DNA of 64,000 nt from a virus (lineage: Duplodnaviria > Caudoviricetes), in the IMG/VR virus record IMGVR_UViG_3300010262_000138, positions 48,217 to 112,216 of that record. The stretch is one strand, 5' to 3'. The translations under genes and the position numbers were made by a program. A model generated the notes under the pieces. The model was not told where the DNA came from, searched no databases, and saw nothing but the letters and a program-made list of their open reading frames with translations. Positions 3,072-48,289 of this stretch are shown in pieces (position 1 is the first letter of the stretch; every line of letters begins with the position of its first letter).

Positions 3072-3368
3072 TTACTTTTCCAAAAGATCCTTATTAGGCT
3101 TAAAAATGACCTGAACGTGAGCCGGCTTTACGGTCCTTTTACCATTCAGACCTGACACATAGGTACGCTCTTTGATTTTAGCAAGGGTGAACCGGCCAAA
3201 GCCGTACAGATTCACATCGTTACCGGTCTGAAGCTGTTCTTTCAGCAACTCGCAGAATGCTGCGATGGTTTCTTTGCTCTTCTTCTTAGTAATTCCAGTC
3301 TTCTCAGCAAAAAGCTCTGTCAGTTCTTCTTTGAAGATGGTAGGGTTATTGTAACTGATAATAATCAC
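3072..3368 (-). CDS. HU-family DNA-binding protein
   Basis: VNLYGFGRF...PAH...FKP signature. Confidence 0.9.
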   Translation of the reverse strand: MIIISYNNPTIFKEELTELFAEKTGITKKKSKETIAAFCELLKEQLQTGNDVNLYGFGRFTLAKIKERTYVSGLNGKRTVKPAHVQVIFKPNKDLLEK

Positions 3369-3370
3369 TC

Positions 3371-4078
3371 CTAAAATTCTAGTTCATCCGCGTGACTGGA
3401 AATCCAGCCGCGATGGTTTGTTGTTAAAGCACATATTGCGACTCTGTTATCGCCCTCAAAGTGGCGGACGTATCTTACAAAGCCGCTTGCCTCTTTGTTT
3501 TCAAGATCGCATTGCCCGTCATGACCAATGCAGATCAGCTTACAGGAATCTGAAATTCTGGTAATTGCCTTCTTAAGATTGGGACCTGTGAAGTTCTGAC
3601 ACTCATCAATGATTACAACCTTATTATGAAAGTTGGTGCCTCGTATAAAACTCTCGGTCAGCAGCTTAACGATGCCTTCTCCCGTTTTCTGGTTGACCAT
3701 AGAAGCGTCGCATACATCTCTCTGCGGATTCATTTTACACTCAATCATTGCCTGATAGAATGGCTCAAAGTATACTTCGCTTTTAGCGGTAATATCTCCG
3801 GGAAGAAACCCCTGTCTTCCTTCGTTGCAGGCGCTGACCAGTCCGATAATTCCATCATACAAGCCATGCCTGACCAGCAGGTTCGCCGCGCCCATTGCAA
3901 CGGTCGTTTTACCGGTGCCCGCACAAGAGTTCGCAAAAATAACCAGCTTCTGAGGATCAAGAATTGCTTCTGCAAAAACCTTTTGTTCAGGATCAAGCGT
4001 CATGCCATAAAAGGGATGACCGTCAAGAGAGGTGGGGCATGGCTCAGAGTAATCCTCGGCAATACGCCTCTTTGCCAT
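3371..4078 (-). CDS. phoH: PhoH-family ATPase
   Basis: AGTGKT, GFLPGD, RG, DECQN, TR and GHDGQCD motifs. Confidence 0.9.
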   Translation of the reverse strand: MAKRRIAEDYSEPCPTSLDGHPFYGMTLDPEQKVFAEAILDPQKLVIFANSCAGTGKTTVAMGAANLLVRHGLYDGIIGLVSACNEGRQGFLPGDITAKSEVYFEPFYQAMIECKMNPQRDVCDASMVNQKTGEGIVKLLTESFIRGTNFHNKVVIIDECQNFTGPNLKKAITRISDSCKLICIGHDGQCDLENKEASGFVRYVRHFEGDNRVAICALTTNHRGWISSHADELEF

Positions 4079-4707
4079 CAGCGCCCACCTCCAAAAATAT
4101 CCGCGATGCTGGTTATAATTCCGTCAATGAATCCATACTCAAGAGCTTCCTGAGCAGTAATGTACCAGTCCTTGTCCTTCTGGCGCCGGTAAGTCTTTAC
4201 ATCAACCTTCGTCTTTGCCATAAGGTAGTCATGTGAAAACCTTTCCAGAGCCTTAAAGTGACTGGCGGCACACTCTACCTGGCTCATCGTCCCCTCAATA
4301 CCTCCAGAACCTGAATGCCACATAAAGGTACTGTGTTCAAGAGCGTATCTCTTATGTCCGGCAAGCATAATCGCACATCCTGCGCTGGCCGCAAGCCCCA
4401 TATTATATGTATAGATCGGAGTTTCACTGGCTTGAATGATATCGATCAAGTGCCACATAGCGTATTCATCCCCGCCGGGACTAAAAATCATAAGGCGAAT
4501 GGGCTCTCGCTTTTCTTTCTCAATTCCACGATCCGCGTCCTCATAGTTCCACAAAAGAATTCGTTTCCCAATTTCAGTCAGGCTTGAACTCACCTCAAAA
4601 TCAAGCCATATGGTTCTACGGTCTGCCTGCTCATAATAGTTAAGAACTTCTGGCTCAGGCAGTTTCAGATTTCCAACACTCTCTGGGATATTAACGTCTA
4701 AAACCAT
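4078..4707 (-). CDS. clpP: ClpP-family protease
   Basis: SPGG, AASAG (catalytic Ser), MWH and A.EALEYGFID motifs. Confidence 0.88.
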   Translation of the reverse strand: MVLDVNIPESVGNLKLPEPEVLNYYEQADRRTIWLDFEVSSSLTEIGKRILLWNYEDADRGIEKEKREPIRLMIFSPGGDEYAMWHLIDIIQASETPIYTYNMGLAASAGCAIMLAGHKRYALEHSTFMWHSGSGGIEGTMSQVECAASHFKALERFSHDYLMAKTKVDVKTYRRQKDKDWYITAQEALEYGFIDGIITSIADIFGGGR

Positions 4708-4826
4708 ATTTTGTCCTCACAAAACTACTGTATTTAGAGGGGAAGTCCCTCATCATACGAAATATTTTGTGCAATTTATACAAAACATGTAGACATGCCC
4801 TGAAGATACAGAGATATTACCGACTA

Positions 4827-5600
4827 TCAACTTTTTTCTTTTGCAGTTGACCTTTTGCGTTCCTCGCGCTTCTTCATCTTAAAATATCTGCTCCTGCCAT
4901 CCCCTAAACATTCAGAGCAATAAATGCGGTTACGGTTCTTTGTCTGCGGCATCCAGCGTCCGCACTCACAGCAGCGTGAGAAATTTTCTCCCTTAAAAGC
5001 CCTGTAAGCATATCCAAGATCCTGAAAATCTTCGTTGTTCAAGTGAATCGCCACATTTCCATCTGGGGAGAATATCAAAGGGCGGGCGCTTAAATTCATG
5101 CATCCATCTCCATACTCTACCATACCCGCCTCGTAGAGCCTTCGCACCATGTCAGTACGTTTCTTTTTGCTTAGAGATAAATTGGCCCGTTCCGCTACCT
5201 CTTTCCAGCGGCTCCCGGCAATAAAACCTTTTGACTTTTCGCTTTTTACCATTTCAAATCTTGCAAGTGCCACACAGGTAAACAGAAAACATTCCAAGTC
5301 CCTGTCTTTCAGGTTGCCTATTATCTCAATTTCTGATGAATAGATTGGTATAGACAAAATCCTATTCAGTGGAAATTTATCTCCGTTTGATACATATGTA
5401 GGGACTTTTTGGAACAACGTAGATCCTTCTGGGAGAGATTTTTCATAAGGCTCTATCAGCTTTCTGACTCGCGCCTCCGCATCGCTTTTATCCATCCCGC
5501 TCTGTACCAGATACCTTGCAGCATACATCGATGCCTCGAATGGGTCTGCTAAAACAGCAGACCCCTCGGTAATATCCTTTGCATACTGATATTCATTCAA
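4827..5600 (-). CDS. Hypothetical protein with C-terminal Zn ribbon, coupled to the RNAP gene
   Basis: 257-aa ORF with CCECG...YCSEC, overlapping the RNAP stop. Confidence 0.7.
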   Translation of the reverse strand: MNEYQYAKDITEGSAVLADPFEASMYAARYLVQSGMDKSDAEARVRKLIEPYEKSLPEGSTLFQKVPTYVSNGDKFPLNRILSIPIYSSEIEIIGNLKDRDLECFLFTCVALARFEMVKSEKSKGFIAGSRWKEVAERANLSLSKKKRTDMVRRLYEAGMVEYGDGCMNLSARPLIFSPDGNVAIHLNNEDFQDLGYAYRAFKGENFSRCCECGRWMPQTKNRNRIYCSECLGDGRSRYFKMKKREERKRSTAKEKS

Positions 5601-37076: not shown

Positions 37077-37382
37077 GATAAAGCATGGCGTATTGAAAAT
37101 TAGGAGCGATGCCTTCACACCGCCCCTATTGCGACTAGCTCCCCAAAGAGAGCCAGATGGCCTTAATGACCTCGCAAATTATCCCGGCGATTACGCCGCA
37201 AATAATCTCCTTGGCTTCAGGACGCATCCGATACCTCCTAACGAGACCAAAAGTTTAGCCTCGAGCGGCCTTTCGCTCTCGTTTCTTCGATTAGGAGATA
37301 ACAATCGCAGTTACAGAATAGCATATCCAGAAAAGGTTTGCAATCTGTAGACGGGAAATAGTTCAATACGCCACGCTTTGTC
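37077..37382. other. Inverted-repeat-bounded antisense peptide cassette 1
   Basis: 21-bp IRs 37077-37097/37362-37382 (19/21) enclose a minus-strand promoter, leader, sORF and terminator. Confidence 0.75.
37135..37227 (-). CDS. 30-aa hydrophobic peptide, type I toxin-like (MRPEAKEIICGVIAGIICEVIKAIWLSLGS)
   Basis: AGGAGGT RBS; promoter TTGCAA-17-TATTCT (37343-37315); terminator hairpin 37101-37128. Confidence 0.75.
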   Translation of the reverse strand: MRPEAKEIICGVIAGIICEVIKAIWLSLGS

Positions 37383-37401
37383 TTAAATATTAGGAGGTAT
37401 T

Positions 37402-37701
37402 TTGATGGATGTAAAAATGCGTTTAGTATTAAATTATCTTGAAAGTCTTCAATATGATATTTGCGAGTCTATGATTGGACCGCAAAATTACAATAGAATT
37501 AACGGCGTGTCTCCTAAAGAGTTTGTGCAAAATCTTCTCTTCTTAAAGGAAGATGGATATATAGGGATAAATTTTTTGGGAAACCCGTCAGAAAATACAC
37601 ATTGCATAATCACAATGACCAAAAAGATGGCAGACGACAAATACTGTAGAGAACGTAATATTTTATACCTATTAAATAAATGGTTTAAGAAAGCCAAGTA
37701 A
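37402..37701 (+). CDS. Small wHTH-like protein, convergent paralog A
   Basis: AGGAGG RBS; aligns with 37672-37989. Confidence 0.7.
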   Translation: MMDVKMRLVLNYLESLQYDICESMIGPQNYNRINGVSPKEFVQNLLFLKEDGYIGINFLGNPSENTHCIITMTKKMADDKYCRERNILYLLNKWFKKAK

Positions 37702-37989
37702 CGATTTTGCCTTACTCCACAAGTCGTCTTGAAAATATGATTTAGCCCTAGGCTTTATTCTTACATAGCACGCATGTTCCGGAGATGGAACTCCTAAGAA
37801 TTGTACGGAAATATACCCCTCACTTTGAATATCAAGTAACTGCCTAATAAACTCGTCAGGAGAAATCCCGTCTATCGCGGAATAGCTTTTAGTGTTAAGC
37901 AACGTGTCATTCTGACTATCGTAATTAAGAGATAATAAGTATTTAAGCACACGTTTAAACTCTTTCTTATTCATTTTAACCACCATCAT
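37672..37989 (-). CDS. Small wHTH-like protein, convergent paralog B
   Basis: Aligns with 37402-37701. Confidence 0.7.
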   Translation of the reverse strand: MMVVKMNKKEFKRVLKYLLSLNYDSQNDTLLNTKSYSAIDGISPDEFIRQLLDIQSEGYISVQFLGVPSPEHACYVRIKPRAKSYFQDDLWSKAKSLLGFLKPFI

Positions 37990-38018
37990 CTATCATGTCA
38001 TAAAGGAGAGAAAATTCA

Positions 38019-38516
38019 ATGACTTACACATCAGCAAGTGCCCACAAACAAATCAAGCTATGGACAGAAGAGCGCGACGCTTTAATTCAAAAGGAGCGGG
38101 AAATCTGCTCGTATACCTATCAGGCGGGAGAGGAACCGGTAATTGAAAAATACGATTTTGTTAATACGCAATGCCGAATCGCGGAATATAACAACAAGAT
38201 TGCCGATCTAAGACACGCTGTTAATCTTTTCAATACAACAACGGTATTGCCCGGACTTGGCTTCACAATTGACGAAGCGCTTGTAAGAATGTCAATGCTT
38301 AACGATCAGAAAAACCGTCTCTCTCGTATGAAAGATATCAGAGAGAAAACGAGACAAACCAACTATAAAGGAATATCAGAATTTACAGAACGCAATTTTA
38401 ATATAGACGATTGTGAAGCTCTGTATCAGAAGGTTTGTAATGAGCTAATTCAAATTCAGCTTTCCATTGATAAGACAAATCTTACAGAACAGTTTGATGT
38501 TCCTGACGAAGATTAA
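38019..38516 (+). CDS. DIP1984/DUF6847-like helical protein
   Basis: I..L.HA.N.FN.TT...TIDEAL....L and ID..N motifs. Confidence 0.7.
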   Translation: MTYTSASAHKQIKLWTEERDALIQKEREICSYTYQAGEEPVIEKYDFVNTQCRIAEYNNKIADLRHAVNLFNTTTVLPGLGFTIDEALVRMSMLNDQKNRLSRMKDIREKTRQTNYKGISEFTERNFNIDDCEALYQKVCNELIQIQLSIDKTNLTEQFDVPDED

Positions 38517-39010
38517 CCATTGCCATTTGTGAAAATTGAAAAGGGTACGTCGCCGCACCCTTTCAGTCATCAATACCGCAGATGACGGAGCGTTTCCCTT
38601 ACGAACATATAGATCGTAAGTACATCAGCAAGTGCGCCGATCATGCGGAGCACATATAGCATCAGTTCGCCCACTGCATCACTGCCTTTCATATATATGC
38701 TGAAAGTACGGGACCCTCACTCTGAGCAAGTGAGTGTAGTCATATGAGCGGGTTGATGACGCCAAAATTATAATACAGTTTACACAAAACGGCAAGCCCT
38801 AATATCCGTCCATCCAGTCCACAACTAAACAAAAGAAAATTCTATCAAGTATCTGTAGACGTATCGTTGATGTTATAAGATTATTTTGTTATTTATTGTC
38901 TGTATGTGCATAAGATGAAGAAGTCTATAGAAGAAATTCTATTTTTAATATCATAATTGGATTGGTAAAAACTTAGGAAAGAGGTCTTTCCCCGGCAAAA
39001 GTAGATGGTT
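38515..39010 (+). ncRNA. Candidate ~500-nt structured ncRNA coupled to the DIP1984-like gene
   Basis: No ORF; ends pair (AACCAT/ATGGTT); tandem hairpin domain 38537-38760; long nested helix 38798-38977 enclosing a U-rich quasi-repeat loop. Confidence 0.6.
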
Positions 39011-39025
39011 ATATGCCGGATATCC

Positions 39026-39369
39026 TGTGCCGCAGCCGAATGATAGGCAGTCAGTTAGTTTGTAAAAGCAGAGTTAAAAAGAGGGCGTGATATTCACGCC
39101 CTGACGGTTAACGACCCCTCATAAGCACTCAGTTTAACAAGGCGCTATAGGTAGCGATCGTTATATTAACGCAGATATCCATGAGATCCATGCCAACACC
39201 TCCTGTATGTAAACTAAAATGAGAGGTTCTTCCCTTAATAACCTTAACACCTCAATTTAGTAACAAAAGGACCGCTACTTTATTATAGCAAATTATTCAA
39301 TTTATACAATAACAAAACTCTTACAAATTCAACTGATGTATGCTGGTTCGAGTCCAGCCGGCACAACCA
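39026..39369 (+). tRNA. Split tRNA gene with ~270-bp insert in the anticodon loop (anticodon ambiguous; TTC if 39057-39327 is removed)
   Basis: 5' half TGTGCCG-CA-GCC..GGC-A-GTCAG-TT (39026-39056); 3' half AA-CTGAT-GTAT-GCTGG-TTCGAGT-CCAGC-CGGCACA-ACCA; all stems pair. Confidence 0.8.
39129..39191 (-). CDS. 20-aa hydrophobic peptide MDLMDICVNITIATYSALLN (27 aa to 39108 if TGA is read through), type I toxin-like
   Basis: AGGAGGT RBS; promoter TTGTAT-16-TATAAT (39309-39282); terminator 39076-39102. Confidence 0.6.
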   Translation of the reverse strand: MDLMDICVNITIATYSALLN

Positions 39370-39449
39370 ACGGAGAATAGGTTGTCAGTTAGTCATCTCC
39401 GGACAAAAACGATTAAGACTGTCTGGCAGGCCGGAAAGACGGCCGATAT

Positions 39450-39524
39450 ACGCCCTTAGCTCAACGGAAGAGCACACTCCTTATAAGGGTGAGGTTGTGG
39501 GGTCAGAACCCACAAGGCGTACCA
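39450..39524 (+). tRNA. tRNA-Ile (anticodon UAU), atypical T-loop
   Basis: Cloverleaf with CT-TAT-AA loop and encoded CCA; T-loop GTCAGAA; one C.A acceptor mismatch. Confidence 0.8.
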
Positions 39525-39578
39525 GATCATTTTCGTAAATCTACGAAAACTGATAATTAAAAAGAAAGAAGGTAAGTT

Positions 39579-39845
39579 ATGACAGAACCCCAGAAGTATC
39601 AATGTCCCTATTGTAAAACCTGGTATGAAACACCCAGAGAGATGGCCCTTTGTACGATTCGCTGCGATGAAGCGAGAGAGGAGATGGAAAAGAGAAAACG
39701 AGAATTAGAATTCAAAGAGAAAAAGGCTCAGAGATCTAGTGAACTTAAGCAAAAATATGTAGAATTACAGAATTTGTGTAAGTCATATGCACATGATTAC
39801 GGGACAGATCTTCCTATCACGTTCCCGTTGAAAATTTTTTTCTAA
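39579..39845 (+). CDS. Zn-finger/coiled-coil hypothetical protein
   Basis: YQCPYC motif, RBS. Confidence 0.7.
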   Translation: MTEPQKYQCPYCKTWYETPREMALCTIRCDEAREEMEKRKRELEFKEKKAQRSSELKQKYVELQNLCKSYAHDYGTDLPITFPLKIFF

Positions 39846-47339: not shown

Positions 47340-48289
47340 ATAATCATTCCATTGCCTACTGCATGATCGGATATCAATGCGCCTTCTTACGCTATTATCA
47401 TCCCTATGAATTCGTCACAGCATATCTCAACAACGCCGCAAACTACGACGATATCAGAAACGGCAGTGATTTGGCGCAGGAATATGGGATTCGAATCAGC
47501 GCTCCCAAGTTTGGTCTTTCAAAAGATACCTACATATTTGACCGGGAGCAAAACGTAATTGCAAAAGGCGTCGCGTCTATCAAGTACCTGAACACCACAG
47601 TCGCAAATGAGCTGTATGAGTTAAGCAAAGAAGTTGACTATACCTATTTTACCGACCTGTTGCTTGACCTGATGCAGAAAACCAGCATTGACTCACGGCA
47701 GCTTGATCTTTTGATTAAAATAGACTTCTTTGACCGGTTCGGAAATGTACCAACGCTGAGTAAAATCAGGGGCGTTTTTGATTTCTTAAAACAGGGGAGC
47801 GCTAAAACAATCAAAAAGGAAAAGCTGGAAAATCATCCGCTTAAAGAGTTGATACCGGCGTTTGCAACAGACAGAAACGCAAAGGGCGCGGAGTTAAAGT
47901 CCTATACAATCCAGGATATGACCGGATTGCTCCACGCAGCCGAGGAAGAAATCAAGTCCTGTCAATTTCCCGATCTTGATTTGAAGGTAAGGCTGTCCAA
48001 TCAGCTTGACATCTTGGGTTATGCAGATCTTACAACGAACCAGATAGAAGATCGCCGCAAACTGCTGATTACCGATATTGTACCATTAAAGAATAAACAG
48101 GGAACGAAACCATGGGCGTATGCGGTTTTTACCCGCTCTGTTGGTACTGGCAAAACCGCGAGGTTAACATTACGTTCGAGAATCTATGATCGCCGTCCGA
48201 TTAAAAAGCTGGATGTAATCTACGCACATGCCCTTAAAAAAGAAGAAAGCGGATATTGGTATCTCTACGATTATGATCTGGTGATTTGA
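47340..48289 (+). CDS. dnaE: DNA polymerase III alpha, exon 2
   Basis: NHSIAY...AFLRYYHPYEF and G..SIK motifs. Confidence 0.9.

Follow-up and report, generated by a model that had tools for sequence, protein, structure and literature searches.

A candidate type I toxin-like peptide cassette in the anticodon arm of a split tRNA gene of an uncultured phage

The DNA analyzed here (the window, 64,000 nucleotides [nt]) covers positions 48,217 to 112,216 of the IMG/VR virus record IMGVR_UViG_3300010262_000138 and forms the right-hand 64 kb of this 112-kb record, which is estimated to be 67% complete. At positions 39026 to 39369, the window carries a transfer RNA (tRNA)-like gene whose two halves are separated in the anticodon loop by an insert with a predicted small peptide gene on the opposite strand. 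The DNA polymerase of the phage is nearest to those of a human-faecal phage and of large Clostridioides and Bacillus siphophages, the closest cultured relatives, and this makes a Firmicute, probably from the gut, the most likely host. The features of the locus are as follows.

39026..39056, plus strand: tRNA-like 5' half, with the acceptor strand at 39026-32, the D arm at 39035-48 and one strand of the anticodon stem at 39050-54, followed by TT.
39057..39075, plus strand: left arm of the closing helix, composed of AGTTTGTA (39057-64), an internal loop AAAGC and AGAGTT (39070-75), from minimum free energy (MFE) and consensus folds.
39074..39102, minus strand: intrinsic terminator from a terminator scan, with the stem at 39102-39082 and then a T run.
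39108..39191, minus strand: small peptide gene, coding for 28 amino acids (aa) in relatives (e.g., MDLMEICVNIAIATYSALLNWVLMRRGR) and for 20 aa in the window.
39192..39281, minus strand: 5' leader of the peptide mRNA, in which the anti-Shine-Dalgarno (anti-SD) segment CCTTTTGT (39270-39263) pairs with ACAGGAGG (39206-39199).
39282..39309, minus strand: sigma-A-type promoter, with TTGTAT (39309-04), a 16-nt spacer and TGcTATAAT (-10 at 39287-82).
39316..39330, plus strand: right arm of the closing helix, composed of AACTCT (39316-21), TACAAATT (39322-29) and a bulged C (39330), from MFE and consensus folds.
39331..39369, plus strand: tRNA-like 3' half, with AA, the other strand of the anticodon stem at 39333-37, the variable loop GTAT and the T arm at 39342-58 (loop TTCGAGT); its end portion comprises the acceptor strand (39359-65) and ACCA (discriminator A plus encoded CCA, 39366-69).
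39450..39524, plus strand: functional tRNA-Ile(UAU), called by ARAGORN and Rfam, the sole canonical tRNA of the 112-kb record.

The acceptor stem of the split tRNA (TGTGCCG/CGGCACA) forms seven of seven pairs, the D stem (GCC/GGC) has 3 bp, and the anticodon stem (GTCAG/CTGAT) is paired throughout, with one G.U included. The T arm reads GCTGG-TTCGAGT-CCAGC. A preliminary description of this DNA, made by inspection, had called both halves intact, and this holds for the stems, the T arm, the ACCA end and their placement. However, the D loop (AATGAT) has a single G and no G18G19, and position 8 is C, so the split tRNA is not fully canonical. ARAGORN with introns allowed made no call on the intact locus, and Rfam RF00005 likewise missed the split tRNA in place. 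Once the insert of about 271 nt had been deleted from the sequence, ARAGORN called a 73-nt tRNA, in agreement with the earlier estimate that about 270 bp part the halves. Joining 39056 to 39328 (deletion of 39057-39327) yielded Glu-TTC by ARAGORN and alternative joins yielded other anticodons, just as had been anticipated for this junction and others.

Applied to the window and to about 0.9 Mb of DNA from related phage loci, a custom split-tRNA finder detected this element alone, except for one locus in a distant phage (L007, IMGVR_UViG_3300045988_159868). On 12 Mb of Markov-random sequence, the finder gave eight matches, corresponding to about 0.09 expected per window, counted before requiring ACCA or a true same-strand tRNA 80 nt downstream. 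A chance resemblance to a tRNA is excluded because the background of the finder is low, the ACCA end is present and the tRNA-Ile(UAU) lies 80 nt downstream on the same strand. A direct repeat with 15 of 17 positions matching was also seen at 39043-39059 (ATAGGCAGTCAGTTAGT) and 39377-39393 (ATAGGTTGTCAGTTAGT). The first copy crosses the insert's 5' junction, and the second falls within the loop of the downstream hairpin; the repeat is of borderline significance, with about 0.2 expected in the 2.6 kb compared.

Among IMG/VR relatives of the split-tRNA region, only one near-identical sibling was found, and this contig is uninformative on constraint because its local divergence from the window is about 0.1%. 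Further variants were reached through contigs that encode the downstream 88-aa and 273-aa proteins, present in a large protein collection. The variant set consists of nine distinct sequences of the region from JGI, ENA and Logan metagenome assemblies, with divergence up to about 10%; ERZ27241761, ERZ27241758, SRR31508364 and ERR13737556 are among the sources of these contigs. The most distant variant, L103, served as the reference for divergence counts against the window. Distant homologues of the upstream 165-aa protein were located in unrelated chromosomal contexts.

The promoter of the minus-strand cassette, which has an extended -10 element, is the top-scoring promoter-like site on either strand within 38450-39460, and the most distant variant differs here at only one of 34 nt. 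The Shine-Dalgarno sequence (SD), AGGAGG, is located 7 nt upstream of the ATG at 39191. Within the leader, GCGGU (39275-71) pairs with ACCGU (39108-04), directly ahead of the terminator. In the predicted fold of the peptide mRNA, calculated on the single sequence (z = -3.4), the SD is masked and the 5' end is paired with the 3' end. In a consensus fold of seven variants, the SD/anti-SD pairs were invariant and the 5'-3' helix was retained. The terminator is present in all variants, with one G.U pair and the loss of one basal pair.

The 28-codon open reading frame (ORF) was found in five variants, L100 and L112 among them, with four distinct full-length peptides (three of them being MDLMEICVNIAIATYSALLNWVLMRRGR, MGLMEICVNIAIATYSALLNWVLTRRGR and MGLMEICINIAIATYSALLNWVLSGRGH). 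Its frame is preserved through a 3-nt indel, and the position of the stop is constant among the variants. A competing GTG ORF within the leader is disrupted in several of them. Residues 3-23 of the 28-aa peptide form a hydrophobic core with a mean Kyte-Doolittle hydropathy of 1.56, and the tails (MRRGR, TRRGR or SGRGH) are Arg-rich. Judged from the aligned sequences, the 28-codon ORF is a real gene. In the window, TGG>TGA at 39131-39129 (codon 21, W21) shortens the peptide to 20 aa with the loss of the Trp and the basic tail, a nonsense allele that is common to the window and its closest kin. The truncation looks recent, as the downstream frame and the old stop (TAA, 39110-39108) are still intact. 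The promoter, the leader pairing with the ribosome-binding site (RBS), the hydrophobic short ORF and the terminator of the preliminary description were thus all recovered, with the correction that the ORF seen there is the truncated allele of a 28-aa gene. Degenerate DNA patterns derived from the peptide retrieved no homologue elsewhere in IMG/VR.

On the plus strand, the ends of the insert are inverted repeats (AGTTTGTA...AGAGTT and AACTCT-TACAAATT), imperfect at the DNA level, that prolong the anticodon stem to a helix of about 21 bp. In the MFE fold, the extended stem starts with 7 bp and a bulged C; 8 bp come next, and a 5-nt internal loop precedes the last 6 bp. The earlier observation that the complementary insert ends continue the anticodon stem as a long helix is confirmed by the sequence and by this fold. 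The MFE fold of the whole 344-nt plus strand kept the cloverleaf arms (dG -96 kcal/mol, z = -6.4). Several substitutions among the variants fall in the closing helix: G39058>A in L103 converts a G.U pair to A-U, T39328C converts a G.U pair to G-C, and A39326G with A39327G gives U.G pairs. One C.A mismatch is introduced by T39061>C, and C39330 is deleted or changed.

In its genomic form, the split tRNA has no 7-nt anticodon loop. The would-be loop differs among the variants, with the triplet TTC, with CTT in variant L112 (T39328C and C39330T) and with only 6 nt in L103, where C39330 is absent. As these would-be loop bases change while the helix stays paired, the variants indicate that the interrupted tRNA no longer decodes and is not a spliced tRNA. 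The target of any selection would be the helix, not a decoding loop.

These variants bear directly on the proposal that the insert is an excisable intervening sequence, whose excision (about 271 nt) would be followed by ligation of the halves into a working tRNA, e.g., Glu-UUC. We consider this very improbable. Removal of 39057-39327 does give a tRNA-Glu(TTC) accepted by ARAGORN, and anticodon loops of bacterial tRNAs can host group I introns (PMC3984707). However, the would-be loop is unconserved (CTT in L112, 6 nt in L103) and a conserved gene occupies the opposite strand of the insert. No group I intron (RF00028) was matched over 38900-39600 in a search with 4227 Rfam families at E<=10, and neither RtcB nor an Rnl-type ligase nor an EndA/splicing endonuclease was found in the phage record. 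Group I introns follow a U at the 5' splice site and end in G, and the bulge-helix-bulge motif consists of two 3-nt bulges and a 4-bp helix. A U does precede the insert, but its 3' end (...TACAAATT) is without a G, as the preliminary description had correctly noted along with the missing group I core. The helix of 7 bp, a 1-nt bulge and 8 bp is not a bulge-helix-bulge. Group I introns of cyanobacterial tRNA-Leu and Azoarcus tRNA-Ile share the anticodon-loop site and a size of roughly 200-300 nt with the insert; in contrast to these introns, the insert lacks the Rfam core and the terminal G, its ends pair directly with each other, it has an opposite-strand gene, and its junction bases are not conserved.

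The same fold recalls transfer-messenger RNA (tmRNA), in which a tRNA-like domain is combined with an internal message. The likeness of topology that had been pointed out stands: a long helix closes off an acceptor/T-arm domain and encloses a large internal region, the molecule would be 344 nt long, and the ACCA is encoded. As also described before, the 3:70 pair is U-A and not G.U. However, tmRNA models found nothing. The tmRNA search of ARAGORN (-m) was empty, the sole Rfam tmRNA match was noise (8 bits versus a gathering score of 84), and the opposite strand is the one with the conserved reading frame. A tmRNA-like molecule is effectively refuted.

All nine variants carry the insert at the same site and in the same orientation, so that it is fixed in this clade, and none of their contigs has an uninterrupted allele. 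Pattern scans of IMG/VR with the exact 3' half, or with the halves plus a 7-nt loop, returned the near-identical sibling or nothing and no uninterrupted allele. A metagenome scan with the conserved downstream motif gave the sibling, a twin of L007 and one chance match only. A BLAST search with the halves, which had been suggested as a way to uninterrupted alleles, yielded only generic tRNA similarity among cultured phages, and the best match, the 'tRNA-TERM' of Salmonella phage 7t3, was judged a chance match. The tRNAs in the syntenic clusters of relatives include no clear ortholog of the split tRNA. That the halves copy a host tRNA and are retained for attachment was ruled out, as a T-arm/acceptor scan of species-representative bacterial genomes found five chance matches in coding regions and no tRNA.

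Every stem of the tRNA halves is intact in eight of the nine variants. In L103, the acceptor stem has an uncompensated A.C mismatch (G4>A) and the T arm a G.U pair (C39343T). L112 has CCA>CTA, and the D loop varies among the variants. A simple pseudogene, arising from a one-off recent insertion with decaying halves, had been named as the contrary case; the insertion is instead old in the clade, with halves that have stayed largely intact.

In the distant, syntenic phages L005 and L122, the MrpR-like gene and the replication module are separated by an ordinary cluster of 11-12 tRNA genes. The distant phage L007 has three normal tRNAs and several aberrant tRNA-like sequences. One of the latter is homologous to the 3' half (T arm) and is followed by ACCA and the downstream hairpin, with no insert; this acceptor/T-arm minihelix keeps ACCA and has an acceptor stem that is different yet paired. 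Given the 11-12 tRNAs of the syntenic relatives and the aberrant tRNA remnants of L007, the split-tRNA locus is by comparison a reduced tRNA cluster.

We therefore favor, with a probability of roughly 55%, an interpretation in which the anticodon arm of a tRNA remnant, in a shrinking tRNA cluster, has become the fixed site of a type I toxin-like peptide cassette, and in which the cassette would be controlled by read-through antisense RNA. The normal state of this phage group would be 11-12 tRNA genes clustered immediately upstream of the replication genes, and in the clade of the window this cluster would have shrunk to the working tRNA-Ile(UAU) and one tRNA-derived gene. In an earlier event, a self-contained minus-strand cassette of about 271 bp would have come into the anticodon loop of a tRNA gene, and such an old insertion is the simplest origin of the split tRNA. 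Rightward transcription of the operon would have to cross the cassette to make tRNA-Ile, and a terminator scan found no plus-strand terminator in 38600-39700, so the read-through RNA would be fully antisense to the peptide mRNA. This RNA would silence the peptide gene when the operon is on, probably by cleavage of the duplex. The sequences themselves show how the locus is built, that the ORF and its signals are conserved, that the insert is fixed in the clade and that features of introns and tmRNA are missing; what we infer is the toxicity of the peptide, its antisense control and any use of the tRNA ends.

The nearest design is that of the prophage type I toxin-antitoxin systems of Firmicutes (C. 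difficile phiCD630-1/-2 CD0956.2/RCd10; B. subtilis bsrG/SR4 and txpA/RatA). The likenesses include a Firmicutes-type phage, a small peptide whose helix is hydrophobic and whose C-terminus is charged, a sigma-A promoter and terminator of its own, and an opposite strand that gives a fully complementary RNA. The RBS-masking leader and the end-to-end pairing of the mRNA, here predicted, are also shared, as is a nonsense allele in one sub-lineage. In contrast to these systems, the cassette has no sequence similarity to described toxin families and no separate antitoxin promoter that could be found, and it lies as a whole inside a tRNA-derived gene. The peptide is also short with an Arg-rich tail, unlike the described C. 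difficile toxins with their Lys-rich tail. Full-text literature searches found no comparable layout. If the interpretation is correct, the very small, toxin-like peptide genes described here would form a new family in uncultured gut-type Firmicutes phages, and phage tRNA clusters could decay by acquiring peptide cassettes besides nuclease genes.

Several observations weigh against a type I-like cassette in a relic. An antisense RNA with its own promoter is a defining part of the described type I systems, and no plus-strand sigma-A-like antitoxin promoter was found in 38450-39460, which would leave read-through of the operon as the only source of antisense RNA. The peptides matched no toxin family of Pfam or NCBIfam at E<=10, and no empty site or second copy shows movement of the cassette. 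A length of 28 aa is at the short end for type I toxins; those of phages and prophages in Clostridioides and Bacillus comprise 30-56 aa and are hydrophobic at the N-terminus and charged at the C-terminus (PMC6563280). The divergence across the intergenic region is a further difficulty. Compared with L103, the halves and immediate flanks differ at 6 of 176 nt (3.4%), the insert at 25 of 274 nt (9.1%) and the upstream spacer at 37 of 233 nt (15.9%). No other part of the intergenic region is conserved as well as the tRNA ends and flanks, and a plain relic would leave their conservation above that of the insert and the upstream spacer unexplained.

This gradient would be expected if the halves were kept as an acceptor/T-arm domain, from which RNase P and the 3'-end enzymes would free a stable RNA of about 344 nt that is antisense to the peptide mRNA. 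The RNA would be an antitoxin or regulator made by tRNA processing and not from its own promoter, an alternative that we regard as possible though rather unlikely. In addition to the low divergence of the halves and the stems intact in eight of nine variants, the closing helix survives changes of G.U to A-U and of G.U to G-C, two changes of A-U to G.U, and the loss of the bulge. These changes fit a plus-strand RNA slightly better than a minus-strand RNA, and the plus-strand fold is strong (z = -6.4). In L007, the acceptor/T-arm minihelix still carries ACCA, and its acceptor stem is a different one yet still paired. The peptide gene opposite is real and toxin-like. However, the acceptor mismatch in L103 is uncompensated and the CCA of L112 is altered, whereas the neighbouring tRNA-Ile has structure-preserving changes only (six differences between L103 and the window, with one double compensatory G-C>A-U in the T stem at 39497 and 39513). 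The D loop is without G18G19 and variable. Conservation of the flanks could also reflect a promoter or processing signal of the tRNA-Ile, whose TTGNCA box is found in L007 as well, and the L007 minihelix can equally be read as a tRNA relic with positions 8-38 deleted. A second cassette (37077-37382) has the same design and inverted repeats without a tRNA. The failure to find a separate plus-strand antitoxin promoter (38450-39460) is predicted by such a processed RNA, yet for an antitoxin RNA it also counts against this alternative.

Engineered tRNA scaffolds and tmRNA likewise have a foreign RNA body that replaces the anticodon loop and extends the anticodon stem. As in the engineered scaffolds, the acceptor and T arms here are intact, so tRNA-processing enzymes could trim the ends. 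Unlike in these molecules, tmRNA hallmarks are absent and the acceptor stem or CCA is imperfect in two variants. The engineered tRNA scaffold design for recombinant RNA is reportedly that of Ponchon and Dardel. If the split gene of the window worked in this way, it would to our knowledge be the first natural reuse of tRNA-processing signals for a defined antisense regulator, the same trick by which biotechnologists stabilize recombinant RNAs.

The other cassette of the region has the following position and structure.

37077..37382, minus strand: second peptide cassette, outside any tRNA, with 21-nt inverted repeats (19/21), an anti-SD/SD leader and a terminator-like hairpin.

Its promoter reads TTGCAA-17-TGcTATTCT, and its ORF (37227-37135) encodes a hydrophobic peptide of 30 aa, MRPEAKEIICGVIAGIICEVIKAIWLSLGS, that is conserved in relatives. 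In L103, a 1-nt deletion extends this ORF and a basic tail is gained. Both peptide cassettes are flanked by inverted repeats just outside the promoter and terminator, and alignments to relatives stop precisely at 37382, the outer end of the repeat of the second cassette. The repeats would fit the working ends of a mobile or invertible element, MITE-like (miniature inverted-repeat transposable element) or flipped by a recombinase, with the anticodon loop as its landing site and the helix as a by-product. A gene with a weak match to the MrpR N-terminal domain, and thus tyrosine-recombinase-like, is conserved near the tRNA cluster. However, the insert is single-copy in the genome, its site and orientation are identical in nine of nine variants, and no empty site was found in the variants or by the pattern scans. 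The repeat pairs of the two cassettes are unrelated in sequence, the repeat around the tRNA insert is poor at the DNA level, where a 5-nt gap separates 8 bp from 6 bp, and no transposase or nuclease is nearby. We consider such an element doubtful, although it is compatible with the other explanations. The more specific suggestion of a mini mobile cassette that targets anticodon loops is at odds with a single copy at one locus in all relatives and with the lack of an empty site or another copy.

Free-standing homing-endonuclease cassettes, which split phage tRNA genes (T4/T6 SegB and the T5 F-Tfl enzymes), are a comparison system. As in those cases, a tRNA of a cluster is interrupted in its anticodon arm by a backward-facing gene, and a working tRNA adjoins. 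In contrast, the insert in the window encodes no nuclease and brings no replacement tRNA, is only about 271 bp long, and codes for a membrane-type peptide, and its ends pair with each other as a long helix.

Adjacent to the second cassette, two segments are present in the window and missing from several relatives. The first (37383-38016, 634 nt) contains tail-to-tail genes for 99 aa and 105 aa and begins exactly at the outer end of the inverted repeat of the second cassette. The other (38581-38766) extends to the -10 box of the minus-strand promoter at 38795-38767. From these alignments, the region is an indel hot spot. Upstream of the split tRNA, about 500 nt (38517-39025) are without an ORF and are the fastest-evolving part of the region (15.9% versus L103). 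The good minus-strand promoter at 38795-38767 and a minus-strand terminator at 38992-38975 within this interval suggest that it gives rise to another small minus-strand RNA.

Downstream of the split tRNA, the interval up to the tRNA-Ile is conserved.

39370..39449, plus strand: conserved spacer, with a hairpin (GGAGA...TCTCC) whose loop is TTGTCAGTTAGTCA, followed by ACAAAAACGAT; L103 has three changes in these 80 nt.

The hairpin and ACAAAAACGAT (39370-39413 of the window) are also found in L007 at 1990-2030, although the proteins of this phage are only about 50% identical. The hairpin loop holds a TTGNCA box that is -35-like and whose fourth base varies (T, G or C). The spacer may be a promoter or processing signal for the tRNA-Ile and the replication genes. 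An apparent covariation of the hairpin loop (GTCAG) with the 3' strand of the anticodon stem, seen between the window and L007, was dropped because L103 has a G there without a matching change. The acceptor stem of the tRNA-Ile in the window carries a C6.A67 mismatch, and a G at 39515 in every other variant mends the pair.

In L005 (3008-3098) and L122 (2876-2968), the tRNA-Ile(UAU) is unusually long (91-93 nt) with an extended variable arm, and L005 has an endonuclease-like ORF at 3110-3715 between tRNA genes. In L007, the intervals 1600-2320 and 4190-4880 contain many GC-clamped hairpins with loops that start with ACAGCAA. Two tRNA-like genes of this phage are interrupted in the anticodon arm by about 45 nt, with CAGCAA(A/T)(A/T)TCTCTCA at the end of each insert, and its acceptor/T-arm minihelix with ACCA measures 50 nt. 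A small repeat element may be invading the tRNA cluster of L007.

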